Shown: piece after piece, positions 9,152 through 62,818 of the stretch
Numbering within the stretch: position 1 is the first letter of the stretch
How the letters are laid out: each line of letters starts with the position of its first letter
NCBI GenBank assembly: GCA_964448095.1
Contig: CAYUUT010000001.1
Location: forward strand, 105,829-169,828
DNA length: 64,000 nt
Direction: 5' to 3'
Origin: an uncultured Candidatus Saccharibacteria bacterium
Lineage (GTDB): Bacteria > Patescibacteriota > Saccharimonadia > Saccharimonadales > UBA10212
The notes under the pieces: generated by a model
The model's database searches: none
Told to the model about the DNA's origin: nothing
What the model saw: the letters and a program-made list of their open reading frames with translations, nothing else
Made by a program: the position numbers and the translations under genes

Positions 9152-11650
9152 TTACTCAGCCGCGGCTGAATAGGTAAGTTCCGGTTCTTTGCTCTTAGCC
9201 GACTTTTTAGCGCTGACATTAACGATGTCGCCTTTATGGTAACTATCATCTAACAGGCCGGCGGCAATGGCGTCTTCTAGAGTCTCTTGCAGCAACCGGC
9301 GCATTGGCCGGGCGCCATTGTGAGCATCATAGCCCTCTTCTAGCAGATATTCTTTGGCGGCTTTGTTTACCTGCAGGCCAATGCCCTTTTTGACTAAGCG
9401 GGAGCGTAGATCTTCCAGCTGAATGTCCAAAATCTTCAGAGCGTCTTTTTTGGTCAAAGCGCGGAAGACAATAACTTTGTCAATACGGTTGAGCAGTTCC
9501 GGCCGCAACATTTTCTTTAGGTCGTCGCGAACCTTGTTTTGATTGGACTCATGCAGCTCATCAAGATTATTCATATCCTGCATGGTGGCCGCGCCGAAGC
9601 CGAAGCTGGCCTCTTTTTGCAGCTTTTCGGCACCGATGTTACTGGTCATAATTACGATAGTATTGGTGAAGTCAATTTTGCGGCCCTTAGCGTCGGATAA
9701 AACACCGTCCTCCAAAATTTGCAGCAACATATTAAATACATCCGGGTGGGCTTTTTCAATTTCGTCAAACAGCACCACACTGTACGGTTGGCGGCGGATT
9801 TTGTCGGTCAGTTGGCCGCCATCGTCATAGCCGACATAGCCTGCCGGGGCTCCGACTAACCTGGCTACTGTGTGATGCTCGCCAAACTCGCTCATATCAA
9901 TCTTGATTAAGGCGTCGTCCGAGCCAAAAAATTCACGAGCCAGAACCCTGGCCAACTCAGTCTTGCCTACTCCGGTAGGACCGAGGAAAACAAACGAACC
10001 AATGGGCCGTTTTTCGCTGGAAATACCCGAACGGCTGCGGCGCACGGCCTTGGCGACCGTCGTCACGGCCTCCTCCTGGCCAATCACATATTTGCCCAGG
10101 TTCTTTTCCAGATTTACTAAATAGGTAGCTTCGGAGCGAATGACTTTAGTAACCGGAATGCCGGTCATACGGGCGACGGTTTCAGCCACGTCGTCAGACG
10201 TGATAGTTATTGGTTTGCCGGTTTTGTGTTTGGTCTCCAGCTCCTTGATTTTGTCGGTTATTTGGCTGGCTTGCTGCTTTTCGCGGGCGGCTTTTTCGTA
10301 GTCTTCCGTGTCTACGGCATCTTCAATCCGGGTATTGATAAGTTTGAGTTGCTTTTGCAGCTGGCGCAGCTGGGGCGGAGTTTTACCCTTGTTTACGCGC
10401 AGATAGGCCGAGGTTTCGTCCAGCAAATCAATCGCTTTGTCCGGCATATAACGGTCGTTGATGTAGCGCCGGGCAAACTGTACGGTATCGGCCAGGACTT
10501 CATCGCTGACCTTTACACCATGGAATTCCTCGTAATGTTGGCGCAGGCCCTTTAAGATTGCCAGAGTTTCGGCGACATTAGTCTCCGGCACCTGTACCGG
10601 TTGGAAACGGCGCTCCAGCGCGGCATCTTTTTCTACGTAGCGCGTGTATTCGTCGGTGGTGGTGGCGCCAATCATGCGGATTCTGCCGCGGGCCAGCGAT
10701 GGCTTTAAGATATTGCCGGCGTCCATGCTGCCTTCAGCCGAACCGGCTCCCACAATTAGATGCAGCTCGTCGATAAAGATGATGGTGTTTTTGTCCTGCT
10801 CCAGCTCGGCGATGACTTTTTTCAAGCGGTCTTCAAATTCACCGCGGTATTTAGTACCGGCAATCATGCCGGCCAGGTCCAAAGTAATAATTCGCTTATC
10901 CAGCAAGCTATCGGGCACTTCTTCGCTAATAATTCGCTGCGCAATGCCTTCCACGATAGCGGTTTTACCAACGCCCGGCTCGCCAATCAGTACCGGGTTA
11001 TTTTTGGTACGGCGATTCAGGATAGTGATGACCCGCTTTATTTGAGCTTCGCGGCCAACTACCGGATCCAGCTTACCGTTTTTAGCCATCTCGGTTAAAT
11101 CAGTGCCGAAAAACTCCAGGGCGGATTTGCTGCGCGCGCCTTTACCGCGTCCACGTGTACCATTAGCCCGGTCAGTATCTTCGCTTTGTTGGCGACTCAA
11201 GAATTGTTCCACCTCGTTGCTAAGCCCATCAATATCCACACTCATGTCGCGCAGCAAAGTGGTAGCCCGGGCGTTCTTTTGGCTCAGAATACTATATAAA
11301 ATGTGCTCGGTGCCACAGTAGTCCTGGTTAAACTCCTGGGCGATTTCCCAAGCCATTTTCAGGGTAAGTTTGGCGGTTTCGGATAAACCTTTACCGCCAA
11401 TGTTGATAACTAAGGTCTTGGGCGTGAGATTTAACGCCAGACGCGCCCGGTCCAGAGTGATACCTGCGCCCTCTAAGATTTTGGCCCCCATTGATTCGTT
11501 CTGGGCCAAAACTCCCAGCAGCAGATGCTCGGTACCAATATAAGCACTGCCACTGGCCCTCGCGATTGCATCGGCGTGCTTTAAGCTCTGCAACGCGTTG
11601 TTGGTCAGGTGATTCAAAAACTCTTGAAAATCAGGACTATTTGGAATCAT
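9152..11650 (-). CDS. clpC: ATP-dependent Clp protease ATP-binding subunit ClpC-type (double AAA+)
   Basis: Clp_N repeats. Two Walker A boxes, [13 protein letters not shown] and [14 protein letters not shown] short middle domain (ClpC-like rather than ClpB-like). The track start at 11671 is GTG; the ATG at 11650 gives [11 protein letters not shown]. Confidence 0.85.
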
Positions 11651-11709
11651 ATTACGCAACCAGTATAGCACGCGTTAGCACTCTCATGTCAAGAGTGCCA
11701 ATTTCTCTT

Positions 11710-12090
11710 TTAAAAGCTTGTGAAGCTCTGGTTGAAGTTAATTAGTAAAAGTACAAAAAGCCATGGTATTACGCTCAAACAATATGTTAAGGAATGCACG
11801 ACTATATTTGGGTTTTTAAGCCTCCGGGCTGTTGTCAATGATACGATAAGAAGAATAACGTTAACCAAAAAAAATACCCAAAAGGCAACTACGAGGAGAG
11901 ATTGTAACGTTCCATCTTTCTTGTTTAAAATACTCAATATTAGAATAAAGACTTCAACGAACAAAAAACTCAGTCCGAAGAAACGAACTATTTTAAAAAG
12001 TTTTACTTTTTCTTCGAAATATTGAGGTGGCTGATTAGCCTGGTTGTCAGGGGCCAGGGCCGGCTCATTTGGACTAACAAATGGCTCCAT
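11710..12090 (-). CDS. Small 4-TM membrane protein encoded in a markedly AT-rich segment
   Basis: Hydrophobic helices FFGLSFLFVEVFILILSIL, LLVVAFWVFFLVNVILLIVSL and VIPWLFVLLLINF. The local GC of roughly 35% contrasts with ~50% in the flanks. The track start is GTG; the ATG lies 2 codons in. Confidence 0.45.
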   Translation of the reverse strand: MEPFVSPNEPALAPDNQANQPPQYFEEKVKLFKIVRFFGLSFLFVEVFILILSILNKKDGTLQSLLVVAFWVFFLVNVILLIVSLTTARRLKNPNIVVHSLTYCLSVIPWLFVLLLINFNQSFTSF

Positions 12091-12119
12091 TAGCACATTG
12101 TAGCATGAGGATTATATTG

Positions 12120-13313
12120 CTATTGCGACTGTCCGTGTTCTTCGATAGCCTTTAGCAGTGAATCTTCCAGCTCAGATTTTTTCTTTAACTTTTGCACAAC
12201 GGGCTTTGATTCAACTTCAACTTTAGAGGCTGGTTCATCGACAGCTGTTGTGTCGGCTTTTTCCTTTGGAGCCGCGTTGTCGGCATCAACGTCCAGCTCG
12301 TAGCCGGCAAGTTTGCCTGCCAGACGGACGTTTTGGCCGGATTTACCGATAGCAATACTCAGCTGGTCTTCGGCAACCACAACTTTGGCCTTGCCGCTAT
12401 CTTTGTTAATTTCCACGCGCTCGACGTTGGCCGGCTTCATGGCGTTAGCAATGAAAGTTTGCGGGTCTTCATCCCAAACTACGATGTCAATCATCTCTTG
12501 GCTGCCAATCTCATCACGGACAGCGTTAATTCGGGTACCGTGACCGCCCACAAAGGTGCCGACCGGATCTACGCCTTGCACATTGCTCTTAACGGCAATC
12601 TTGCTGCGCACGCCGGCTTCTCGGGCGATAGCCTTGATTTCTACGGCGTCGTTATCCATCTCCGGTACTTCCGAACGGAACAATTGTTCTACAAATTCTT
12701 TGGCGCCACGGCTGACAATCAGCTGCGGCCCGCGGAAGTTTTTCTCGACGTCTTTTAGGAAAAATTTCAGCCGTTGCCCCGGGTAGTAACGTTCGTTTTG
12801 GATTTGCTCGCTGGCGGGCATTAAACCTTGCCCCCGACCGAGCTCTACGCGCACCACCCGGCCTTCCACGCGGCTAACTACGCCGTTAACGACAGTGCCG
12901 ATTTTATCTTCGAACTCGGCCATAACAATCTCGCGTTCGGCTTCACGCAAACGCTGCAAAATAACCTGCTTAGCGGTTTGGGCGGCAACGCGGCCAAAAT
13001 CTTCGACTTTTTGCTCGATTTCAACGGTCTCGCCAACTTTGGCGTTTTTGCGCATTACTTTGGCGGCGGCTAGGCTGATTTGCGCCCGGTCGTCCTCAAC
13101 TTCTTCAACGATTTCTTTGGTGACAAAAGCTGTTACTTCACCGGTGTTCAGGTTCATAGTCACGCGCACTTCTTGCTCGCGGTCGCCGTAATCACGGCGC
13201 CAAGCGGCAGCCAGGGCCTGCTGGACAATGTCCTGAACTTGCTCTTCGGGCAGGTTTTTCTCTTCGGCAATCACCCTGATGGCGCCTGCCAGTTGTTTAA
13301 AATCCATTTCCAT
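12120..13313 (-). CDS. nusA: Transcription termination/antitermination factor NusA with an acidic C-terminal tail
   Basis: N-terminal NusA domain, S1 and two KH domains. A good Shine-Dalgarno site (GAAGGAG) upstream of the ATG. No rimP upstream. Confidence 0.9.
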   Translation of the reverse strand: MEMDFKQLAGAIRVIAEEKNLPEEQVQDIVQQALAAAWRRDYGDREQEVRVTMNLNTGEVTAFVTKEIVEEVEDDRAQISLAAAKVMRKNAKVGETVEIEQKVEDFGRVAAQTAKQVILQRLREAEREIVMAEFEDKIGTVVNGVVSRVEGRVVRVELGRGQGLMPASEQIQNERYYPGQRLKFFLKDVEKNFRGPQLIVSRGAKEFVEQLFRSEVPEMDNDAVEIKAIAREAGVRSKIAVKSNVQGVDPVGTFVGGHGTRINAVRDEIGSQEMIDIVVWDEDPQTFIANAMKPANVERVEINKDSGKAKVVVAEDQLSIAIGKSGQNVRLAGKLAGYELDVDADNAAPKEKADTTAVDEPASKVEVESKPVVQKLKKKSELEDSLLKAIEEHGQSQ

Positions 13314-26958: not shown

Positions 26959-27429
26959 ATGTCAGACGGCACGCTGGTTGTGTGTGAAGTGGAGACCCCA
27001 GGCTTCGGCCGCTGCCGAACGCTGCAGTTGTCCGACAGGGCTCGCGGATTCGAGACCGAGAGGCCTCTGTCCGATCTGACGGACGTTCGCGTCGTCAAGC
27101 GCGGTCCCGACCTGGTGGCTCTGCTGATCCACCAGCATCACTGCCGTGTTCCCCTCGAAGAGCTCGGGAGCACCGGGCTCGGCCTCGCGGAGAGGATCCA
27201 CGCCCACGGCCACGTCCAGGGCATCCTTTTCGAGGAGCGCAATCTGATCGTCGTCACGGCGACGATTTCGTTCTACTGGGAGACACTGCTCGACCACGTC
27301 CTGGGGTGCCTCGGCTCCCAAGCCCACCAGCGGCGCGTCGCCCTGCACGAGGAGGCAAGGCGCCGCAGGACAGAAGCGGTACTGCCGCTCGGCCTATACC
27401 CAGGCGGCTCCAAGCCGCTCCCGGCGTAG
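26959..27429 (+). CDS. Hypothetical 156-aa protein in a ~65% GC islet, with codon usage typical of high-GC organisms
   Basis: A GGAGG Shine-Dalgarno site 5 nt upstream of the ATG. GC3 about 85%, against first-position GC far lower. The antisense ORF at 26962..27348 shares the same codon register but has a low-GC third position, so the plus frame is the coding one. No family recognised. Confidence 0.45.
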   Translation: MSDGTLVVCEVETPGFGRCRTLQLSDRARGFETERPLSDLTDVRVVKRGPDLVALLIHQHHCRVPLEELGSTGLGLAERIHAHGHVQGILFEERNLIVVTATISFYWETLLDHVLGCLGSQAHQRRVALHEEARRRRTEAVLPLGLYPGGSKPLPA

Positions 27430-53359: not shown

Positions 53360-54856
53360 ATGAATACTTTAGCGAAATTCTACCAGCGGCCAATGGATAT
53401 GATTGATGGGCTGCTCGATGGCCTGACGTCTTACAGACTGCTGCTGTATTTTCTTATAACGCTCCTGGGCTGGGCGACGCTAATTAGTTTTGACCATAAA
53501 TTACCCTATAACTGGCATGCGATTCTGTTGTCGGCGCTATTACTCGTAGTTGTTTGCCGGGCTTTTGGCGAGTTATTCGCCCGGGTTTTAAATATCCCCC
53601 GAAACTTTGAGTCAGATTACATCACGGCTTTGATTTTAGCTCTGATTTTGTCACCGACTACTGGCCGTGTCGGCTTCGCGGTGTTAGCTGGCGCCGGTTT
53701 TGCGGCTATCGCTTCAAAATATCTGTTGATAATCCATCGGCAGCACATTTTTAATCCGGCAGCTTTTGGCGCAGCAGTAGCCGGTATTTTATTCCATCAG
53801 TATGCCAGTTGGTGGGTTGGCACGGCCTCGCTTGCCCCGCTGGTGTTAGTTGGCGGCCTTCTAATAATGCGTAAAATGAAGCGTTTTTGGATGATAACTA
53901 TTTTTACGTTGGTCTATGGTGTGTTTTTACACCAACAATTTGACGGCGCTCCGCCGCTGCACACTATCTGGCTGGCAGCCTCCGCTACCGGTGTGATGTT
54001 CTTCGCGTTTGTTATGTTAACCGAACCACTGACTTCGCCCGACGCGTTTAGCAAATATCTGCCCTACAGTATTCTGGTCGGAGTATTGTACAGCGTAACT
54101 AAATTGCGTCTCAGCCCCGAAGAGGCTTTGCTGATTGGCAATGCCTTCGCCTACGCGCTAGTGCGCGGCAAACGCTTGCAACTTTATGCTAGCAACGCAG
54201 TCAAAGAGGCTGAAGGCATTTACAGCTTTAGCTTCGAATATCATGGCCTGTTCGATTTCAATCCTGGACAATATATGGAATGGACCCTGCCGCTGCGTCA
54301 CAGCGACAGCCGCGGCAACCGCCGCTATTTCACATTGTCATCTTCACCTACCGAGCACCAGCTGGCGTTCACTGTCCGGATACCCAAAGACTCCAGCCAC
54401 TTCAAACAGGCCCTAAAGAGCTTCCAGCCGAATGACAAAATGTTGGCCTCACATCTTGGCGGTTCATTCTTGCTGCCTAAAAACCAGCAACAAAAGTTGG
54501 CGTTTGTTGCTGGCGGCATCGGCGTCACGCCATTCCGCTCAATGATTAAATACCTAATAGATAAACGCCAGGAACGCGACGTTAGTCTGATTTACGCGGC
54601 CAATAAAGAAAGTGAGTTCGCCTTTACGGAGATTTTTGCCCAGGCAAAAAATATTGGCCTCAAGACTAACTACTTGTTGACTGCTCGGCAGCCGCTGCGG
54701 GCACCGGACATCACCGCCGCCATTCCGGATTATCATGAAAGGCTGTTTTATTTGTCCGGGCCTTACGGCTTTGTAAAATCTGCCAGAGAGTCGTTGCTAG
54801 GGGTCGGCGTTAGCGTGAAAAATATCAAATCAGACTACTTCCCGGGCTACAATTAG
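53360..54856 (+). CDS. Fusion protein: N-terminal NqrB/RnfD-like polytopic membrane domain + C-terminal NqrF/FNR-like FAD/NAD(P)H oxidoreductase domain
   Basis: YITALILALILSPTTG and HIFNPAAFGAAVAGILF match the RnfD/NqrB signatures (SALLTGLLLA...PP, NPFNPAM). MLTEPLTSP resembles the RnfD flavinylation motif (LTDPVTAST). The C-terminus carries RRYFTLSSSP (the RxYS FAD site) and GGIGVTPF (the NAD site). Confidence 0.6.
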   Translation: MNTLAKFYQRPMDMIDGLLDGLTSYRLLLYFLITLLGWATLISFDHKLPYNWHAILLSALLLVVVCRAFGELFARVLNIPRNFESDYITALILALILSPTTGRVGFAVLAGAGFAAIASKYLLIIHRQHIFNPAAFGAAVAGILFHQYASWWVGTASLAPLVLVGGLLIMRKMKRFWMITIFTLVYGVFLHQQFDGAPPLHTIWLAASATGVMFFAFVMLTEPLTSPDAFSKYLPYSILVGVLYSVTKLRLSPEEALLIGNAFAYALVRGKRLQLYASNAVKEAEGIYSFSFEYHGLFDFNPGQYMEWTLPLRHSDSRGNRRYFTLSSSPTEHQLAFTVRIPKDSSHFKQALKSFQPNDKMLASHLGGSFLLPKNQQQKLAFVAGGIGVTPFRSMIKYLIDKRQERDVSLIYAANKESEFAFTEIFAQAKNIGLKTNYLLTARQPLRAPDITAAIPDYHERLFYLSGPYGFVKSARESLLGVGVSVKNIKSDYFPGYN

Positions 54857-55513
54857 CGCCCGATAATCCTTCTGCTTTTTCATGAAATTCTCGGCCCTCA
54901 AACCCATGGCAAAACAAGCCGTGGCCAGCGCATCAGCCGTGATAATATCCGGGCCAACGACTGTCACACTTAATAGTTCATCAGCCGGCCGGCCGGTCTT
55001 TGGATTGATGATGTGCTGGCCACGTTCGTAGTTGCCGCTGGTAGCAACCGCTCCGGAAAAAATACTTAACTTGTTAAGTATTTTTTTACTATCGGTTGGA
55101 TCCTGAATGCCTATCTTCCACTCTTTGTTGCCGTCGCTTCTGGCCAGAATATCGCCGCCAATACTCATGCAAAATGTCTTAATTCCTTTTTTGTCCAGAA
55201 GCTTCCCTGCCTCAGCGATGGCCCAACCTTTGACATAGCCGGTTGGATCAAATTTGCCGGAAAAATAAGCCGAGAAATATCCATCCGTCAGTCTTTCGAA
55301 CTTGGTGCAGGCTTTTTTAATGGTTGCCATTTCCTCGCTCAAACCAACTTCTCCCCGCTGATACCTCGCCAGCTCGCTATTTTTTTTGTAAGAGCTAAAG
55401 CGTTCGTCAATTTTTCTTAATAATTTAAAGACTTCTTCGAATATGGCTTCATCCTTAGCCGCGGGGACGTCCAGGCTCACTCCTGTCCCCATAATAACTC
55501 GGTTGCGACGCAT
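54830..55513 (-). CDS. apbE: FAD:protein FMN transferase (ApbE family), short form lacking a signal peptide
   Basis: IMGTGVSL N-terminal motif, FDPTGYVKGWA, SIGGDI and AVATSGNYERGQHIINPKTG. Convergent with, and overlapping the 3' end of, the NqrB-FNR fusion gene. Confidence 0.75.
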   Translation of the reverse strand: MRRNRVIMGTGVSLDVPAAKDEAIFEEVFKLLRKIDERFSSYKKNSELARYQRGEVGLSEEMATIKKACTKFERLTDGYFSAYFSGKFDPTGYVKGWAIAEAGKLLDKKGIKTFCMSIGGDILARSDGNKEWKIGIQDPTDSKKILNKLSIFSGAVATSGNYERGQHIINPKTGRPADELLSVTVVGPDIITADALATACFAMGLRAENFMKKQKDYRALIVAREVV

Positions 55514-55518
55514 AAGTT

Positions 55519-56007
55519 TTACGAGCTAGCGGCTTTATCTAACGCTGCTTGAAGAGACTGCTCAAAGCCATAGCTGTCGCTGGTAGCTCCAGAGACAAAA
55601 TCGATATGCGCACTTTGTTTTTGCAGGGCTGTTTGCTTTAGGAGTGGCTCGGCCGCGGCTGCGATGGCACGCGAATTTCCCAAATCATTGGGCATCTGCA
55701 AGAAATTGATATCGGTTATTTTGCCACCGCTGATTACGGCCGCAACTTGGACGGTACCATAGGGCGTTTGAGCGGCAGAGCCTATATAGTTGCCGTCCTT
55801 GTAGCCTTGGCCTGAGGCAGCGTTACTTGAATTACTGGACGCCACGGTTGAGACTGCGCTGCCACCCTGATTAGTGGCTATGACTGCCGGCGTATTAGTT
55901 TTGGGACTACTTATTAGCAAAGCGCTGGTATTCCCGCTCTTATTAACGTAAAGCCCAAGGCCGCCTAAAATGGCTATAGTCATAACTACTAGGAGTGATC
56001 TTTTCAT
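55519..56007 (-). CDS. Secreted/membrane-anchored FMN-binding domain protein (FMN_bind, an ApbE substrate type)
   Basis: Signal anchor LLVVMTIAILGGLGL. YKDGNYIGSAAQTPYGTVQVAAVISGGKITDINF and a C-terminal DFVSGATSDS flavinylation motif. Confidence 0.7.
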   Translation of the reverse strand: MKRSLLVVMTIAILGGLGLYVNKSGNTSALLISSPKTNTPAVIATNQGGSAVSTVASSNSSNAASGQGYKDGNYIGSAAQTPYGTVQVAAVISGGKITDINFLQMPNDLGNSRAIAAAAEPLLKQTALQKQSAHIDFVSGATSDSYGFEQSLQAALDKAASS

Positions 56008-56114
56008 CTACCTAATTCTAGCAAGTTCTTGCTGAGATTTAACTTAGGCTAATGTAAGTTCAGTCTGCCGGAAAAAGCGTCGTCTAAGCTTCAGCCCGTT
56101 ATAATAAAGCTAGC

Positions 56115-57095
56115 ATGAGATTTATATTACTTTTGCTAGAAATTATTTTCCTGTTGAGCCTGTCGGCTATCTGCTCCGGTCTGAATGTATCCTTCACTTC
56201 GTTGGATATGGCCGATTTGGAGCGCAAGAGCAAATTGGGCAACAAGGGCGCTCAGAGGATTCTGGCTTTGCGGCGGAACAGCCACCTAACGCTGGCCAGT
56301 ATTCTAATGACCAATGTGGCAGTTATTTCGACGACTTCGCTGGTTCTGCATAGCTGGGTCAACAGCATCGCCGCCGGAATTATCAGCACGCTTCTGATTG
56401 TCGTCTTTGGCGAAGTTATACCTCAGGCCTTCTTCACTCGCTACGCCCTGGGCTTCACAGCCTTCTTCGCGCCATTCCTAAGGCTAATTACCGTCATCAC
56501 CTACCCTGTATCCAAGCCTCTGCAGCTGGTACTGGATAGACTCATCGGCCAGGAAAAGATGCAGCTTCAAAGCCGGGCCGAGTTAGGCTTGCTCATAACC
56601 CAGCACAGCGGACGGCACGGCAGCGAATTGGATGAGGACGAAATTGAAATTATCCGCGGCGCCCTGAGACTGAGCCAGCGGCGCGTCAAGGACATCATGA
56701 CGCCCATTGAGAAGGTTTATTGGCTGACACCTGACACCGTCATTGACGGCGTTAAAATCGACCAACTGAAGCTTAAGGGTCATAGCCGGATACCAATTTT
56801 CAATGGAGCCAAAACTAGAGCCTTCGGCGTCTTGATGATGAAGGACTTAGTGGATATAGATTTCGACGACGAAAAACATACGGCTAGTGATTTACCGCAA
56901 CGGCCGACTACGATGGTCGGCAGTCTGACGGCTCTGGATACCATGTTTCGTAAGTTCATCAGCGCCCACAGTCACTTGATGGCAGTTGAGCGCGATGATA
57001 AGATCGTCGGCATCATAACGATTGAGGACTTGCTGGAAGAGATTATCGGCCACGAGATTGAGGATGAGTCCGACCGCAGTCGCAGACTTAGCTAA
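56115..57095 (+). CDS. CNNM/CorC (HlyC/CorC) family protein: DUF21 membrane domain + CBS pair
   Basis: N-terminal 4-TM DUF21. CBS domains (IMTPIEKVYWL..., ...VGIITIEDLLEEIIG). Confidence 0.8.
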   Translation: MRFILLLLEIIFLLSLSAICSGLNVSFTSLDMADLERKSKLGNKGAQRILALRRNSHLTLASILMTNVAVISTTSLVLHSWVNSIAAGIISTLLIVVFGEVIPQAFFTRYALGFTAFFAPFLRLITVITYPVSKPLQLVLDRLIGQEKMQLQSRAELGLLITQHSGRHGSELDEDEIEIIRGALRLSQRRVKDIMTPIEKVYWLTPDTVIDGVKIDQLKLKGHSRIPIFNGAKTRAFGVLMMKDLVDIDFDDEKHTASDLPQRPTTMVGSLTALDTMFRKFISAHSHLMAVERDDKIVGIITIEDLLEEIIGHEIEDESDRSRRLS

Positions 57096-57141
57096 AGAAA
57101 CTTATTTCGTTCAGCTCAGGTGGTAAGAAGCCGTTCTCGTG

Positions 57142-57312
57142 CTAGAAATTGGCTTGCCATTTATAGCCTTTGTTGTAGCCCAGGTCTTTCATCAACTTGG
57201 TTGGGGCGTTGCGCAACGGATTGTAGCTCTTCGGCAGAAAATGCAGATAAACCAGGAAGGCCGTACTAATGCCGATAAAGAGCAGTATAAAAGCTCCTAG
57301 CAAAGGGTCCAT
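57142..57312 (-). pseudogene. 56-codon ORF: an N-terminal hydrophobic helix fused to a diverged copy of the RarA C-terminus ([20 protein letters not shown]); likely a displaced 3' remnant of rarA
   Basis: The translation [56 protein letters not shown] matches RarA residues encoded at about 60690-60830 ([20 protein letters not shown]) at 18 of 20 positions. Nucleotide identity is only ~73%. Same orientation as rarA. Confidence 0.4.
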
Positions 57313-57478
57313 GCTCAATGTACTACTCCAATCCTAGCCGCCCGCTTGTTTCATATCGCATACTTGTAATCTAGACGAGAAAGTTTAAAATGTTGTTTAT
57401 GATTCGTTTATTCTCCGCCAAAAACTATTACGAGGCTTCCTTAATCTGACGAGAAGCCAGCTTTTAATTTGCATGATG

Positions 57479-57510
57479 AAATCTGCCTTCTCGGGCAGAT
57501 TTTTTAATTT
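57479..57510 (+). terminator. Rho-independent terminator (9-bp stem AAATCTGCC/GGCAGATTT, 6-nt loop, then a T-tract)
   Basis: Canonical hairpin followed by a U-tract, about 390 nt downstream of the CNNM stop. May end a long 3' UTR or a short plus-strand transcript. Confidence 0.5.
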
Positions 57511-57554
57511 GTTCGAGAGCACCTAACCCTACTACGGAAAGTGAGGCACTGCGC

Positions 57555-57935
57555 GTGACCACTTTTAAGGCTCTCATCAAGAGGGCTAGAAAGTTCGCCT
57601 GGTACTACAACCGGGCGGTGGTACTGGGAACTCTCCAGCGTGACATGACGCCGCACATCGTCTTCGCGGATTTGCGTGAAGGCGATGTCATCGGCTTCGA
57701 GCTGCCGGGAACACTGGTAAGTGTGAGAGTGGTGGACACAGCCCTGCAGCTAGTGGTGCCGTGTAGGTGGCACTACAAGTCAGGCAAGATGCAGTTCCGC
57801 GGCCATGCCATTGCCGCTGGACGCCACACCACCTTTGGCAGCTCCCGCTGGGCTGGCAACTACATCACGCTAGCGCCGGCCCGGAGAATCCTACTCAATG
57901 GGAAGCCCATCCCTGAAGGCAGGTTGCTACGGTAG
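57555..57935 (+). CDS. Hypothetical basic 126-aa protein, GTG start, elevated GC (~58%, GC3 ~75%)
   Basis: A GTGAGG Shine-Dalgarno-like element upstream. No family recognised. Confidence 0.4.
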   Translation: MTTFKALIKRARKFAWYYNRAVVLGTLQRDMTPHIVFADLREGDVIGFELPGTLVSVRVVDTALQLVVPCRWHYKSGKMQFRGHAIAAGRHTTFGSSRWAGNYITLAPARRILLNGKPIPEGRLLR

Positions 57936-57943
57936 GGCAAATA

Positions 57944-57973
57944 GGGGCTGCGGTGGCACACCACCGCAGCCCC
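57944..57973. terminator. Perfect 13-bp GC hairpin (GGGGCTGCGGTGG-CACA-CCACCGCAGCCCC) with no U-tract; candidate bidirectional/I-shaped terminator
   Basis: Sits between the convergent 126-aa ORF and the methyltransferase gene. Confidence 0.45.
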
Positions 57974-58020
57974 TACTCAAACTGACCGCCCGCTTGGTTT
58001 TTCTCGGGTTTATAAGAGCC

Positions 58021-58698
58021 CTACTTGGGCAGGTTGGCGCGAGGAATCACGATAGTATCCATTTTATCGGGCCGGTCAGGGTCAAAATGCCTCGTTAGGG
58101 GCGGAAAGTAGCTATGGAACTCAATGTCATTATCAAAACAAACTGTTCTGGCGGCTTCCATGGTTTGAGGATCAGAGGTTACCAGAAACTTACCATTTTC
58201 ATCTAGGGCCGGCCCGACCTCGTGCAACAATCGTCCTATTCTGCTACCAAAATAGTCCGGGCCAAACATAAAGGCAGCCACTAAATCGAACCTTTTGCCT
58301 TTGCGATTCAATTGCCTTAAAGTCCATGCACCGTCGCCTATGTGGATATTCTCGGGCGGTAGGATGCCGCTTATAGCGATCTCTGCAGCGTGCTCCGGCT
58401 CTAATTCGGCCGCTTCTACACTACCGCCGTTCAGTGTCGCCAAGCGCCCCAATGCATAGGTGGCTCCGCCCGTGCCGGCGCCATATTCAAATATTCTTTT
58501 AGATGCCCGTAAATCAAGTTGCCCCTGTATCGCCATAACGTTGAGCGAATGTTGAGCTCTTACTGCGGCCAGCTGCTGCCAGGGGTGCAGTTCTGTGAAA
58601 TCAAGGTAAGCTTCTACGCATAAGCGCAAATCCCCGACTTCATGCGATGTTTTAGAAGTGCTCGCCATAATATATAAGTTTAATTGATAATTATACAA
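58021..58698 (-). CDS. Class I SAM-dependent methyltransferase (not an obvious DNA MTase; no DPPY/NPPY motif)
   Basis: Motif I IFEYGAGTGGATYAL. Motif II/III-like DLVAAFMFGPD. Confidence 0.6.
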   Translation of the reverse strand: MYNYQLNLYIMASTSKTSHEVGDLRLCVEAYLDFTELHPWQQLAAVRAQHSLNVMAIQGQLDLRASKRIFEYGAGTGGATYALGRLATLNGGSVEAAELEPEHAAEIAISGILPPENIHIGDGAWTLRQLNRKGKRFDLVAAFMFGPDYFGSRIGRLLHEVGPALDENGKFLVTSDPQTMEAARTVCFDNDIEFHSYFPPLTRHFDPDRPDKMDTIVIPRANLPK

Positions 58699-58789
58699 TA
58701 GTTTTTGATTTATGCAACGGAAACCGCCCGCCCCATACCATAAAGCTACGAGGTAAACTTATTTTGAGCGTTAGATATAAAATAAGGGT

Positions 58790-60031
58790 ATGGGGACCGA
58801 TTATCGGCGCAACCACTATGTTCCTGAGTGGTATCAAAAAAACTTTATCCCGCCCGATGGTTCGGGGAAGCTATTTTATTTAAGACTAAAGCCGAAGGAG
58901 TTCAGAGACTCAAAGGGAGGGATTCATCTTGAACCCGCCCTGCGCGAGTCTAGTCCAGGACAGTGCTTCTACCAAAAGGATCTTTATACCACGAGGTTTG
59001 GCGCAAATGTATCCCGAGATATTGAGAGGTACTTCTTCGGCCTGATGGATACAAATGGTCAAAAAGCAGCCAATCACTTCGCTAACTACGTTTTCCCTAA
59101 CTGGGATGGTAAGCCGGTTCAAGACCTCATAACTTACCTGAGTACCCAGAAACTAAGAACCCCCAAAGGATTAGACTGGTTAGCAAACACGCTGGGTACT
59201 ACAGACGGAAACCGGACCTTAATCGAGATGCAAAGATTCCAGGATGTTTTTTGTGCCACATGGGTAGAGTGTGTGTGGCAAATAGCAGACGCTGAAAGTT
59301 CCGATACTAAGTTCATTATTTCTGACCACCCCGTGACTATATACAATCGCGAATGCGGCCCACGGAATAAGAAGTGGTGTCGAGGCTCCAATGACCCTGA
59401 CATTCGCCTTCAAGGCTCGCATACTGTTTTTCCTCTCAGTCTGAATAAAGTCTTGATATTGACGAATATGTCTTGGGTGCGCAACCCATATCAATCAGCA
59501 GTTGGCGAACGTCCCAACCCGACTCTCTACCACAGTACCGTATTTGACTTCCACCGGTTACAAATTAATAGACGCCTGTCGGAGCAAGAAGTCAGAGAAA
59601 TTAATTTCGTTATTAAAAGTCGGGCTTATGACTACATAGCCGCTGGTAAAGAAGAGTGGCTGTACCCTGAGAAATTCATCACGAAATCAAATTGGAATGT
59701 TTACGGCGATGGTTTGCTATTTATGCCCGATCCTCGCTCATTCAATTATGGCGGTGAGGTATATGGAGGTAATAATAGTGGCCCGACCTTTGCAGTGGAT
59801 TCATATGGGCGAAAGCCTGGGGACCCAAATTTCGGAAAGGAAGATATCCCCCCGAACCAAAGCACTCTGCCACTTTATCGATTCCAGGGGGATTTTGCTC
59901 GCAAATTTGGCACACACCGACGAGGAGTAGCTATGGAGTTTGGGGAGCTTGAGGACGAGGTAGACACTGAAACCTACCACGAGTATCACCTTGGCTTGGG
60001 GAAGCAAAAGAAATCAAAAAACATAATTTAA
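58790..60031 (+). CDS. DUF4238-like protein (413 aa)
   Basis: The N-terminal RNHYVPEWYQKNF resembles the DUF4238 signature (HY[VI]PQFYL[KR]NF) as I recall it. Atypical codon usage (AGA, AGG, CTA, TTA). Confidence 0.5.
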   Translation: MGTDYRRNHYVPEWYQKNFIPPDGSGKLFYLRLKPKEFRDSKGGIHLEPALRESSPGQCFYQKDLYTTRFGANVSRDIERYFFGLMDTNGQKAANHFANYVFPNWDGKPVQDLITYLSTQKLRTPKGLDWLANTLGTTDGNRTLIEMQRFQDVFCATWVECVWQIADAESSDTKFIISDHPVTIYNRECGPRNKKWCRGSNDPDIRLQGSHTVFPLSLNKVLILTNMSWVRNPYQSAVGERPNPTLYHSTVFDFHRLQINRRLSEQEVREINFVIKSRAYDYIAAGKEEWLYPEKFITKSNWNVYGDGLLFMPDPRSFNYGGEVYGGNNSGPTFAVDSYGRKPGDPNFGKEDIPPNQSTLPLYRFQGDFARKFGTHRRGVAMEFGELEDEVDTETYHEYHLGLGKQKKSKNII

Positions 60032-60237
60032 TATTGGGTCCGGGCATCGGCTCAAACAGAAGACTGAGTGCAGCCAAAAAGATGTCGGCCAAACGTATGT
60101 TTGAGCGAAGCGAGGCCGGCTTGGCCCACTTTTTGGCAAGCGAAGTCGCTCTGCTTTGAACGCAGCCCGGCGGTTTGCCACACTTTGCCGTTCAAAGTGT
60201 GAAAATTTTAGGACTTTTGAAAAAAAGACCAGTAGCC

Positions 60238-60678
60238 TTATCGCCTGTTTGCAAAATTATCGAGTTTCTTGCCAATCACATACCCCAAAGCTGCTAGTGT
60301 GACTATAGGCCCGACAAGAATAGAAATCTCTGCTAGCTCCGCATGAGTGCTGAAATCAGCATTCTGGACTTCTCTCTGCGTAGGGACATATCCAACATAT
60401 TGTCGATCTATTCCGTAGTGGCCGTATCTATCAACCCCCATGACTCCAAGAATGATGCCGCCAATCATGCCACCGACACTGAGGACAAGGTCAGCTCCTT
60501 CAATCGGTTCTTCGTCGTCATTGCCCCATCTCCTGCCGCCTTCGCCGCCTCTGTCATTGCCATTATTGCCGCCGTTCCCACCGCCACCACCAAACTGTCT
60601 CTCAAACTCTGTCAAGTCTGTTAGTCTAATCTCTCCACCAGCGGGTCGCTCTAATGTAGCCGTCATCTTATCGAACAT
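60238..60678 (-). CDS. Glycine-rich membrane protein (146 aa)
   Basis: GGGGGNGGNNGNDRGGEGG low-complexity segment followed by 2-3 hydrophobic helices. Immediately downstream of rarA on the same strand. Confidence 0.45.
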   Translation of the reverse strand: MFDKMTATLERPAGGEIRLTDLTEFERQFGGGGGNGGNNGNDRGGEGGRRWGNDDEEPIEGADLVLSVGGMIGGIILGVMGVDRYGHYGIDRQYVGYVPTQREVQNADFSTHAELAEISILVGPIVTLAALGYVIGKKLDNFANRR

Positions 60679-60684
60679 TATTCA

Positions 60685-61881
60685 CTATTTCGCAAAAAAG
60701 TCTAGGTTCTGCAGTTCATCTGGCAAAAATCCTTTGGGGTGCTTAAACCCGGCCTCCCACTTTGTGCCTTTGCCGTAGCCTAAATCTTTCATAAGTTTGG
60801 TTGGCGCGTTACGCAGGTGAATCGGCACAGGCAAATCCGGGTATTGCCGAGCTGTGGTTTGCGCGGCACTCATGGCGCTAGCAACCTCGCGTGACTTAGG
60901 CGCTTTGGCCATCACAGTTGCGCAGTGAAACAGATTATATTGGCATTCTGGCATGCCAATGCGCTCCACCGCCAGGAACGTCGAAACAGCCAGGTTTAGC
61001 GCGGCCGGGGCGGCCATGCCAATATCTTCACTGGCAAAAACTACCATCCGCCGTGCAATAAACTTGGGGTCTTCGCCGGCCTGCAGCATCCGTGCCATAT
61101 AATAAAGCGCCGCCGTGGCGTCGCTGCCGCGCATCGATTTTATAAAGGCGCTGATGATGTTGTAGTGGTTTTCGCCGGCTTTGTCGTAACCCGGCACCCG
61201 TTTTTGGGCGGCGCTCTGCACAACTTCCGGCGTAATGGCGCCCCGCGTCAGCTGCAGCGCTAGCTCTAAATTGCTTAGCGCAATGCGGCCGTCGCCGCCG
61301 GAAACTTCTGCCAGCATGTCAACGCCGGCGGCTGGCAAGCGCTTAGCACTGAGCTTTTCGGCCTTGGCGGCGCGTTTAATAATCTTTACGATGTCAGCTT
61401 TGGTCAGTGGCTCCAGCACAACTACCCGGCTGCGCGACAAAAGAGGAGTGATTACTTCAAAGCTGGGATTCTCGGTTGTCGCGCCAATCAATGTAATGAG
61501 CCCGGACTCGACGTGCGGCAAAAAAGCGTCCTGCTGGGCTTTATTGAAACGGTGGATTTCATCAACAAACAGGACGGTTTGAGTCGGAGCCTTGGTGGTA
61601 TTACCCTGCTGGTTGGCCCGGGCGCGCTCAACAACTTTAGTAACATCGGCTTTACCAGCGGTTACGGCAGAAATTTCTACAAAGTCGGCCTCTAGCTCAT
61701 TAGCGATAATCCGCGCCAATGTGGTTTTGCCACTGCCCGGCGGCCCCCAAAAAATCAAAGAAAACGGCTGACCGGCTTTAACCAGCTGGCTAATCATTTT
61801 ACCTTCGCCCAAGATGTGTTCTTGGCCAACCACCTCCGACAATTTACGCGGGCGCATGCGCTCCGCTAACGGCTGCTCCAT
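60685..61881 (-). CDS. rarA: Replication-associated recombination protein A (RarA/MgsA AAA+ ATPase)
   Basis: Walker [10 protein letters not shown], Walker [11 protein letters not shown] and the C-terminal [17 protein letters not shown]. The track start at 62016 would overlap gnd by 116 nt; the ATG at 61881 ([11 protein letters not shown]) is the likely start. Confidence 0.85.
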
Positions 61882-61900
61882 AGGCCTTATTATATATCTA

Positions 61901-62818
61901 TCACTTCGCCGGTTGGTCGGGGTTAATCTCGTGGCCGCCAAACTTGTTACGCATAGCGGATAATAGTTTGGTGGCGAAGTTGATCTCGCCATTTTGGCTA
62001 GCAATACGAATGTCAAAGGCCGTTTGGATGGCTGGCATCGGAATATTCATTTCCTTGGCGACTTCCAGCGTCCAACGAGCTTCGCCGGATTCAGCTACAA
62101 CGCCGTCGATGCCTGCCAGCTGGGGATTTTCGGCCAGAGCTTTTTGTGACAACTCATTCAACCAGGAAGTCACCACGCTGCCGTGCTGCCAAACTTCGCC
62201 AGCCGCCGCTAAATCCAACTCTTTATATGGACCTTCTTTTAGGATACGGTAGCCTTCTGCCAAGCTCTCCATCATGCCGTACTCAATGGCGTTGTGGACC
62301 ATCTTTACAAAATGACCGCTGCCGCTGGGTCCAAAATACTGATAGGCGCCGCTAGGCTTGGCCAGAGTTTTGAGCACCGGCTCGACCACTTTAAAAGCTG
62401 TGTTGTCGCCACCAGCCATCATCGAAAAGCCATTTTTGTAGCCCCAGACACCGCCGCTGGTACCAACATCCAGAAGTGTTGAACGGGCAGCCGCAACCTT
62501 ATCAGAGCGTTTTTGGGTTAGCCGAAAATCAGAATTACCGCCGTCAATTATCAAGCTGCCCTCCGGCGCTAAAGCTAGCCAAGCGCCTAGCTCCTCGTCT
62601 ACCACGTTCGCTGGTATCATCAGCCACAGCATTAACTGCTCGCCCACAAAGGCTTTAATTACATCTTCTTTTTTATAGGCGGCTTTGGCGCCATAAGTAA
62701 CGGCCTCGTCAACCTTCTCCGGGCTGCGGTTTTGGGCGTAGACCTCGTGTCCGTCTTCGGCTAGTTTGCGGGCGATTTGCATGCCCATCCGGCCCAAGCC
62801 GGCAATTGCGATTTTCAT
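61901..62818 (-). CDS. gnd: 6-phosphogluconate dehydrogenase, decarboxylating, short (~300 aa) form
   Basis: MKIAIAGLGRMGMQIARKL NAD(P) fold and the 6PGD C-terminal domain. The track start at 62836 is TTG; the ATG is at 62818. Confidence 0.8.
   Translation of the reverse strand: MKIAIAGLGRMGMQIARKLAEDGHEVYAQNRSPEKVDEAVTYGAKAAYKKEDVIKAFVGEQLMLWLMIPANVVDEELGAWLALAPEGSLIIDGGNSDFRLTQKRSDKVAAARSTLLDVGTSGGVWGYKNGFSMMAGGDNTAFKVVEPVLKTLAKPSGAYQYFGPSGSGHFVKMVHNAIEYGMMESLAEGYRILKEGPYKELDLAAAGEVWQHGSVVTSWLNELSQKALAENPQLAGIDGVVAESGEARWTLEVAKEMNIPMPAIQTAFDIRIASQNGEINFATKLLSAMRNKFGGHEINPDQPAK

Follow-up and report, generated by a model that had tools for sequence, protein, structure and literature searches.

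We analyzed a stretch of 64,000 nt (hereafter, the window) from the genome of an uncultured Candidatus Saccharibacteria bacterium (GenBank assembly GCA_964448095.1, contig CAYUUT010000001.1, positions 105,829–169,828 of the forward strand) and examined the interval between the stop codon of the housekeeping gene rarA and the leader of the FMN_bind gene. The backbone of this region is ATP synthase, ABC transporter, G6PD, PGL, 6PGDH, rarA, the variable interval, FMN_bind, ApbE, NQR-like, FUR, and Zip. The interval holds accessory genes and a second 3′ end of rarA that is separate from the intact gene (the detached tail). Its borders and the features on which its history turns are:

55519..56007, minus strand: FMN_bind gene, a core gene that flanks the interval (synteny with L001, L002, L166, and L169; Pfam families on the gene list of L083)
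56008..56042, minus strand: conserved FMN_bind leader, which forms the border of the interval opposite rarA (sequence alignment)
56115..57095, plus strand: CNNM/CBS transporter gene, part of the variable segment (Pfam CNNM 2.8e-34, CBS)
57088..57216, minus strand: detached rarA tail of a foreign type, with an in-frame TAG at 57142–57144 (blastx, Pfam, and repeat search)
57142..57312/57318, minus strand: chimeric small open reading frame (ORF) of 56–58 aa, made of 34 unrelated hydrophobic codons and the first 24 codons of the tail
60685..61881, minus strand: intact rarA/mgsA, 398 aa, ATG start (Pfam MgsA_C 6e-50, AAA_assoc_2, AAA; full MgsA architecture)
60688..60816, minus strand: tail of the working rarA from LRNAPT to the last codon, the partner of the detached tail in the repeat and of the clade-native type (tail comparison)

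The detached tail is a nonfunctional piece of a rarA gene. It consists of the last 42 codons and the stop TAA (57090–57088), 129 nt in a single frame with no indels and no frameshifts, and its sole defect is a TAG at 57144–57142 where the intact gene has AAG (Lys). The piece has no start codon or promoter, and it lies in the same orientation as intact rarA, 3600 nt from the tail of that gene. Of 227 rarA proteins compared with it using blastx, 186 match (best E=1e-16) and every match starts exactly at 57216, the L of LRNAPT; the same comparison found no rarA-like sequence upstream of 57216 in any frame. In a repeat search, no repeat of the region was larger than the pair 57112–57215 and 60712–60815, which spans 104 nt at 70% identity with a spacing of 3600. 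The peptide read through the TAG matches Pfam MgsA_C with E=1e-4 and 22.7 bits, which is below the whole-protein cutoff of 27 bits as expected for a piece of 42 residues, and the real tail taken alone scores 4.5e-3 and 17.3 bits. A reading of the letters alone (the sequence-only reading) had matched by eye the end of a 56-aa ORF to the RarA C terminus and described a repeat in the same orientation. That repeat is real and its similarity to RarA is significant in the blastx and Pfam searches, with homology that is longer than had been noted and continues past the TAG to the natural stop. The chimeric ORF at 57142–57318 is probably not a real gene: a gene caller lists it as a 56-aa product that has no Pfam match, and the part derived from the tail is the only one that resembles anything.

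An arrangement of this kind could be produced artificially if assembly or binning joined two strains, and the assemblies ERZ27245399 and SRR8465028 do break near the junction of rarA and the Gly-rich gene next to it and inside the segment. Nevertheless, both junctions are carried by assemblies from three independent datasets (ENA ERZ27245399, Logan SRR8465028, and JGI 3300028800). The junction that runs from CNNM through the detached tail to the next gene, orf126, is spanned by L083, L085, and L086, and that of the Gly-rich gene and rarA by L082 and L084, at identities of 98.3–100%. The detached tail is identical in sequence in strains L083 and L086, and the intact RarA protein was found exactly on contigs of the three datasets. 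We regard a chimera as scarcely credible. Two contigs of ERZ27245399, L081 and L083, share exactly 141 nt, the length of the assembly k-mer, across the rarA stop (60580–60720), where both end. The contig on the island side reaches 36 nt into the rarA tail, to 60720, a hint of another strain variant that diverges within the tail.

The two tails differ in the way that working genes of different lineages differ. In codon register, the copies share 82 of 123 nt (67%) and 29 of 41 residues, with no exact run longer than 8 nt, and 14 of the 29 identical residues are encoded by different codons. Differences number 14, 6, and 21 at the first, second, and third codon positions, respectively (chi-square p=0.016), and their proportion is 0.77 at synonymous sites, which is saturated, versus 0.22 at nonsynonymous sites. 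Because the differences fall mostly at synonymous sites, the divergence arose while both tails belonged to working genes, in different lineages. The variant residues of the detached tail are states present in other Saccharibacteria rarA tails. By these comparisons the two tails are xenologues, and nearly all of their divergence accrued while each was part of a working gene. A duplication of the tail within this genome, followed by decay of the unused copy, would place two copies close together and in the same orientation, as is observed. Yet neutral decay to 67% identity would look different from a divergence that is heavily synonymous, includes no indel, shows one stop in 129 nt, and replaces residues with ones that are valid in other lineages. 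Barring chance, the codon-position pattern refutes local duplication, which we consider highly improbable.

Comparisons with relatives indicate which of the two tails is native. Among public genomes, all of the closest rarA loci come from metagenome-assembled genomes of Candidatus Saccharibacteria/Saccharimonadales, and relatives of the rarA protein reach 92% identity in the protein search. The working-tail type is present in the 12 rarA proteins whose bodies are most similar (89–98%), with matches at 21–27 of 27 variable positions, and the working tail is identical to that of P0012 at 41 of 41 aligned residues. For the detached tail, the best match among 120 relatives is 18 of 26 variable positions; the tails nearest to it (L116, L155, L160, L137, and L131; 78% identical in protein and 76–77% in DNA) are from more distant lineages. 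In a sliding window, nucleotide identity of rarA to its relatives shows no discontinuity at the tail boundary, with the tail at the level of the gene body. The tail on the intact gene is thus the clade's own, and the detached tail is of a foreign type. Tail types do not track the identity of the rarA body (P0021, P0022, P0024, and P0032), and an alternative block is present at residues ~315–350 in P0012, P0014, P0018–20, and P0023. Because tail types are uncoupled from the body and an alternative block lies upstream, the 3′ region of rarA is a recombination mosaic in this group.

This polarity bears on the model put forward in the sequence-only reading, in which a site-specific integrative element inserted at the 3′ end of rarA, brought a replacement tail, displaced the resident tail, and later lost its integrase. 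Two like-oriented copies of the 3′ end of a gene around genes of atypical composition, an intact target gene, and a sharp repeat boundary are consistent with such an element, and a Campbell-type single crossover would likewise make the remnant the resident tail. However, a working tail that is native and a detached tail that is foreign are the reverse of what is predicted for a replacement tail carried by an element, so that the proposed displaced original does not hold. In Pfam gene lists, neither the segment nor the 10 kb to each side of it has an integrase, recombinase, excisionase, or relaxase, the proteins of the island have no integrase or recombinase match in Pfam, NCBIfam, PHROGs, or PADLOC, and a tRNA search found none in the window; the absence of such genes had been noted correctly. 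There is no identical att core, since identity is 67–70% throughout and the longest exact run is that of 8 nt. The four genes between the tails (orf126, a methyltransferase-like gene, a DUF4238 gene, and the Gly-rich gene) are not linked elsewhere, and relatives hold other genes in the same interval without the repeat. The segment has no match in phage or plasmid DNA, nor has the DUF4238 gene in viral contigs. Among 125 loci with a rarA tail, a detached tail is confined to this strain, so the site was not reused. Thus, none of the four defining features that were tested for an element (recombinase, att core, tail polarity, and reuse elsewhere) was found. We view this model as quite unlikely, and no new type of mobile element comes to light at the locus. 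The topology itself, in which a new tail and genes came in and the previous tail was pushed downstream, could still have been produced by general recombination, in which case the previous tail would have been of a foreign type too. A second tail match in L066 (Candidatus Methanomethylophilus sp. UBA78) was rejected as a remnant: it corresponds to two tandem full-length rarA paralogues (9941–12626) whose reading frames overlap by ~110 nt.

Relatives show that the interval, rather than an island within rarA, is the unit that varies. The accessory segment of the window spans ~56043–60684, includes CNNM, and fills the whole interval from rarA to FMN_bind. The flanks G6PD-PGL-6PGDH-rarA and FMN_bind-ApbE-NQR-like are both kept in the window and in L166. 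Synteny in L169 covers the rarA side and the start of FMN_bind, and in L001 and L002 it covers rarA and the FMN_bind-ApbE side only. Between these flanks, seven distinct contents were seen, including one empty site:

L002: empty, a 36-nt gap in which the FMN_bind leader begins 3 nt past the rarA stop
L001: 4.3 kb with genes for an RNA-binding protein and for glyoxalase-like, SIMPL-like, and topoisomerase-IB-like proteins (read from translations)
L166–168: 3.7 kb with DUF5677, a HAD hydrolase, and small ORFs
L169/170: 3.8 kb with two genes whose proteins have 303 and 167 aa, a homologue (64%, opposite orientation) of the methyltransferase-like gene, and a gene for an acetyltransferase
L171 and L180: still other small genes directly after rarA, on contigs that both end before any FMN_bind gene
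Window: ~56043–60684, five genes including CNNM, and the detached tail

The five genes of the window differ from the backbone in composition. AGA and AGG make up 36 of 89 of their Arg codons (0.40) versus 132 of 910 (0.145) in the backbone (Fisher p=2e-8), and orf126, the DUF4238 gene, and the Gly-rich gene are outliers in codon usage. Each accessory gene has its own scattered distribution, and the four genes between the tails never occur together elsewhere. The sequence-only reading had singled out this locus as the accessory one of the window and its genes as a compositional mosaic, and both points are borne out, the mosaic by GC3 (GC content at third codon positions), codon usage, and the share of AGA and AGG. 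Its four-gene block is indeed variable. Its boundary at 57096 is not supported because the segment takes in CNNM and ends at ~56043, and its view of a discrete island in rarA is at odds with relatives that have unrelated genes (L001, L166, L169, L171, and L180) or nothing (L002) in the same place. The synteny it had proposed to look for, with CNNM directly adjacent to rarA, does not occur in this interval in L001, L002, L166, and L169, from which CNNM is absent. Judged from these sequence comparisons, the stretch from the rarA stop to the FMN_bind leader is probably a hotspot of gene turnover in this clade of Saccharibacteria, an assessment that we make jointly with that of the detached tail as a scar.

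Several observations concern the hotspot and its surroundings. Pfam and PADLOC searches of the cargo in relatives yielded only DUF5677, a weak MazG-like match, and a mad2-like methyltransferase, too little to justify labeling the hotspot a defense island. A candidate for a third rarA vestige at 56044–56114, from the start of CNNM to the FMN_bind leader, was dismissed (score of 21 vs. a shuffled mean of 18.5, p ~0.15). Strains that are otherwise 99.4–99.8% identical have ~860 nt extra between the NQR-like gene and ApbE (window 54849–54903; L083 5204–6113; L086 4638–5547). This stretch has a 243-aa gene with no Pfam match and alters the C terminus of ApbE, and is a second strain-level indel beside the hotspot. 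In the closest rarA relative (92%), an extra gene of 125 aa is located between 6PGDH and rarA (L180 4287–4664, minus strand; also L181 and L183). Because the closest relative has an extra gene there, the upstream side of rarA is not invariant either.

Recombination has left a trace in rarA itself, at one position:

61486, no strand: homologous-recombination breakpoint inside rarA between co-occurring strains (L084 vs. the window)

Relative to the window, L084 (JGI 3300028800) has two mismatches over 58056–61485 and then 70 over 61486–62108 (620 nt). The near-identical stretch takes in the greater part of the four-gene block together with two-thirds of rarA at its 3′ end, and the 70 mismatches are almost all synonymous, with proteins that are 99% identical. 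L081 likewise shows clustered patches of mismatches to the window, at 61366–61450 and 62033–62096. Because the density of mismatches in L084 jumps sharply, rarA is a site at which homologous recombination between diverged, co-occurring lineages starts or ends.

At the other end of the segment, CNNM and the detached tail are tightly packed. The stop of CNNM overlaps the stop of the detached tail inside a perfect palindrome, TTAGCTAA (57088–57095), and both frames end in Ser-stop. Because the stops overlap in this manner, the two suggest themselves, on sequence grounds, as convergent neighbors that evolved together and arrived together. CNNM has AGA and AGG at 0.32 of its Arg codons versus the backbone value of 0.145, and its nearest nonself homologue is 67% identical among 5.8 billion proteins, in a database that includes genomes of the clade. 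No rarA is present in the context of that homologue. Relatives that could represent a donor or an empty site were sought through CNNM by metagenome scan and protein search, which returned the same strain at 100% and otherwise only sequences of ≤67%. In at least 33 of 79 other Saccharibacteria loci (L087–L165), a CNNM gene is upstream of rarA, on the same strand and 20 bp to ~5 kb away. In the clade of the window, 6PGDH holds that place, and the CNNM of the window is again beside a fragment of rarA, in convergent orientation.

We suggest that the interval is a core-gene-flanked hotspot that is turned over by homology-anchored recombination and that one imprecise exchange left the detached tail as a scar, an account that we consider probable while leaving appreciable room for doubt. 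DNA from other Saccharibacteria and beyond would enter the interval by general recombination anchored in the flanking core genes, presumably through natural transformation and then RecA. Most exchanges would be clean double crossovers and leave no trace. One event would have been imprecise, with a homologous join at one end but an illegitimate one at the other (homology-facilitated illegitimate recombination), and would have left 129 nt of the rarA of a foreign lineage, still abutting the CNNM beside which it evolved. The detached tail would later have acquired its one stop codon. We infer both the mechanism of the imprecise event and the joint arrival of CNNM and the tail. Two orders of events fit equally well. 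In the first, the foreign tail and CNNM came first, spliced onto rarA, and were later displaced by a clade-type 3′ part of rarA and the four genes. In the second, the four genes came first, and the tail and CNNM arrived later as the truncated edge of an imported fragment; in a variant of this order, a full foreign copy of rarA may have been imported and later truncated. Illegitimate recombination facilitated by homology was put forward for C-terminal displacement at Rhs and type VI secretion system (T6SS) loci (PMC5361080), and natural competence has been reported for Saccharibacteria (PMC10633639, PMC10187176), in the former paper for cultivated members.

Some findings weigh against this account. 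No genome with either intermediate arrangement was found, and the event is reconstructed rather than observed; no parental sequence for the 57216/57217 junction was found either. The first codon of the tail's most conserved block is exactly where the cut lies, which may point to a preferred site rather than to a random illegitimate join. What ties CNNM to the tail is the overlap of their stops and a weak correlation of CNNM similarity with detached-tail similarity (rho 0.39, p=0.03, 30 loci, nonindependent data), on which we do not rely. The argument from competence is drawn from cultivated Saccharibacteria rather than from genes of this genome. The relatives used to identify the hotspot are fairly distant (PGL is 46–49% identical), so turnover may be slow and not "hot." Last, a more specific mechanism of exchange is conceivable in view of one feature, a noncoding element of ~50 nt that is 90–96% conserved before unrelated genes in three hotspots.

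A simpler import would lead to the same end state. A complete foreign rarA could have come with CNNM as ordinary horizontally transferred DNA and then have been mostly deleted, down to its last 129 nt, without a homology-anchored illegitimate join. Small, reduced genomes delete redundant DNA readily, tandem full-length rarA paralogues exist in L066, and a detached tail that is foreign and packed tightly against CNNM is equally expected. Nonetheless, this route needs an extra step, leaves the landing beside rarA unexplained, and must have a deletion endpoint that coincides with the start of the conserved block, and among the 125 loci none from this clade showed two full copies. We therefore judge it unlikely and continue to favor an imprecise, homology-anchored exchange.

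The ~50-nt noncoding element is present once in the window and has copies in the intervals of relatives:

58721..58774, plus strand: window copy, ...CCATACCATAAAGCTACGRGG..CTTATTTTGAGCGT, just upstream of the DUF4238 gene (sequence comparison)
L169, 5431–5485, minus strand: copy of the element
L169, 6918–7003, minus strand: split copy, upstream of the methyltransferase homologue
L170, 2117–2171, minus strand: copy of the element
L171, 8710–8764, minus strand: copy of the element

Identity to the window copy is 96% in L169 and 90% in L171, in genomes whose rarA DNA is ~78% identical. Directly downstream of each copy is a different hotspot gene, unrelated to the others and oriented toward the rarA stop. 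In L169 and L171 the element is followed by TATAAT and, 6–9 nt later, by a start codon, and exactly one gene, unrelated in each, lies between the element and the rarA stop. The element is absent from L166, L180, L001, L002, and the viral contigs. It has no Rfam match and no stable or shared RNA fold (z-scores of -0.85 to +0.67). From its sequence and position, the element may be a promoter or a landing pad. The rarA tail and the element could conceivably be the borders of a dedicated slot for gene swapping, run by an integron-like or Xer-like system of site-directed exchange in the candidate phyla radiation. If so, one by-product of the exchange system would be the detached tail, with its cut precisely at the conserved LRNAPT block. 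We rate such a system as very unlikely.

The four genes between the tails, and a structure that precedes them, are:

57478..57503, plus strand: strong terminator-like hairpin with an 11-bp stem and a T run, between the detached tail and orf126
57555..57935, plus strand: orf126, a small GC-rich gene (GC 0.59, GC3 0.72)
58021..58665, minus strand: methyltransferase-like gene (PADLOC mad2 1.3e-6, partial profile; PDB TrmI 7e-3)
58790..60031, plus strand: gene for a DUF4238 protein of 413 aa (Pfam PF14022, E=3.6e-14)
60238..60678, minus strand: gene for a Gly-rich protein of 146 aa with hydrophobic stretches, starting 6 nt past the rarA stop

All four are present as the sequence-only reading described them, except that its naming of the second as an S-adenosylmethionine (SAM) methyltransferase is weakly backed, with no match of the protein in Pfam or in NCBIfam. 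A glycine-rich stretch in this protein, EYGAGTGGAT, is a candidate SAM-binding motif identified by eye, and an AlphaFold model made without an alignment was unusable (predicted local distance difference test score of 35). The hotspot of L169 has the homologue of 64% identity. The orf126 gene has a perfect 15-bp hairpin (inverted repeat) 3′ of it at 57942–57975. Its protein has just two credible homologues among 1.8 billion representative proteins, of which the closer (78%) is in an unrelated context (L179). The Gly-rich protein has no family match in Pfam, NCBIfam, PHROGs, or PADLOC, and AGA and AGG make up 0.73 of the Arg codons of its gene.

The match of the DUF4238 protein to its Pfam profile scores 53.3 bits against a gathering cutoff of 27 and covers positions 1–279 of the 281 of the profile. 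Homologues of 52–67% identity occur in Verrucomicrobia, Chloroflexota, Planctomycetes, and several Patescibacteria, and others of 38–40% are on proteobacterial plasmids; in L175–L178 homologues stand alone among unrelated genes. Here the gene is divergent from the methyltransferase-like gene, and the pair is unlinked elsewhere. The protein has no PADLOC match, no tblastn match in the phage collection, and none in the viral contigs. It is confidently modeled, and its predicted fold matches no solved structure. For the family, single-gene antiphage activity has been shown for a member from an Escherichia coli P2 hotspot (Rousset et al. 2022, PMC9122126).

Two other compositional outliers are located in the window, far from the interval:

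26959..27429, plus strand: isolated GC-rich ORF of 156 aa (GC 0.665, GC3 0.82, against a backbone of ~0.51 GC), no Pfam match
11710..12096, minus strand: low-GC ORF of 128 aa (GC 0.367), whose only match, to DUF3784, is weak

The first has the strongest deviation in codon usage in the window and may be a foreign gene or a spurious ORF.

The locus combines features of several known systems. Core-gene-flanked hotspots of horizontal gene transfer are a concept reportedly owed to Oliveira and colleagues in 2017. Like such hotspots and like defense islands, the interval has the same two core genes around differing cargo, one empty site, atypical composition, recombination tracts in a flanking gene, and a gene of a defense family (DUF4238) among its cargo. 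Unlike them, it is in an ultra-small Saccharibacteria genome, its cargo is mostly without assigned function, and it is not borne by phages or satellites. P2/P4 hotspots are described by Rousset et al. 2022 (PMC9122126). Integrative elements (prophages, integrative and conjugative elements, and genomic islands at the 3′ ends of tRNA, transfer-messenger RNA, and protein genes) also bracket accessory DNA with a direct repeat and leave their target intact. They differ from the locus described here, which lacks an integrase, an excisionase, a transfer gene, and an identical core (8-nt maximum), has a repeat of 67–70% identity and a native working tail, brackets genes that are unlinked elsewhere, and uses a site that is unused in ~120 other genomes.

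Kirchberger et al. 2017 (PMC5361080), who refer to Jackson 2009, de Vries & Wackernagel 2002, and Prudhomme 2002, treat C-terminal displacement and orphan 3′ fragments at Rhs, contact-dependent inhibition (CDI), and T6SS effector loci, which are put down to illegitimate recombination facilitated by homology. As in those loci, a conserved 5′ gene body serves here as the homologous anchor, a new 3′ end comes with downstream genes, and a promoterless fragment of an older or foreign 3′ end is downstream in the same orientation, with no integrase. Clean homologous replacement is regarded as commoner there, as we suggest for the interval. The gene here differs in that it encodes a housekeeping AAA+ ATPase, in which the tail does not serve as a variable functional module, and there is a single orphan with a stop codon, whose former status as a resident is only a possibility. 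By analogy, the mechanism would be closest to C-terminal displacement at polymorphic-toxin loci, and the organization most resembles bacterial hotspots of horizontal transfer. The kind of locus is already known; what is new is an instance in a housekeeping gene of Saccharibacteria, which is unsurprising.

The locus nevertheless illustrates the turnover of accessory genes in a Saccharibacteria genome that is ultra-small and host-dependent, in which one core-flanked interval would be rewritten in each lineage. The breakpoint in rarA and the stranded foreign tail are physical evidence, read from sequence, of recombination with diverged relatives, and turnover at the locus fits the recent finding of natural competence in Saccharibacteria. 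The by-products of the analysis are perhaps worth more than the scar: a near-identical noncoding element that precedes unrelated cargo and a confidently modeled DUF4238 protein whose predicted fold resembles no solved structure. For genetics in these bacteria, the interval is a concrete site that tolerates foreign DNA and a possible neutral site for insertions.

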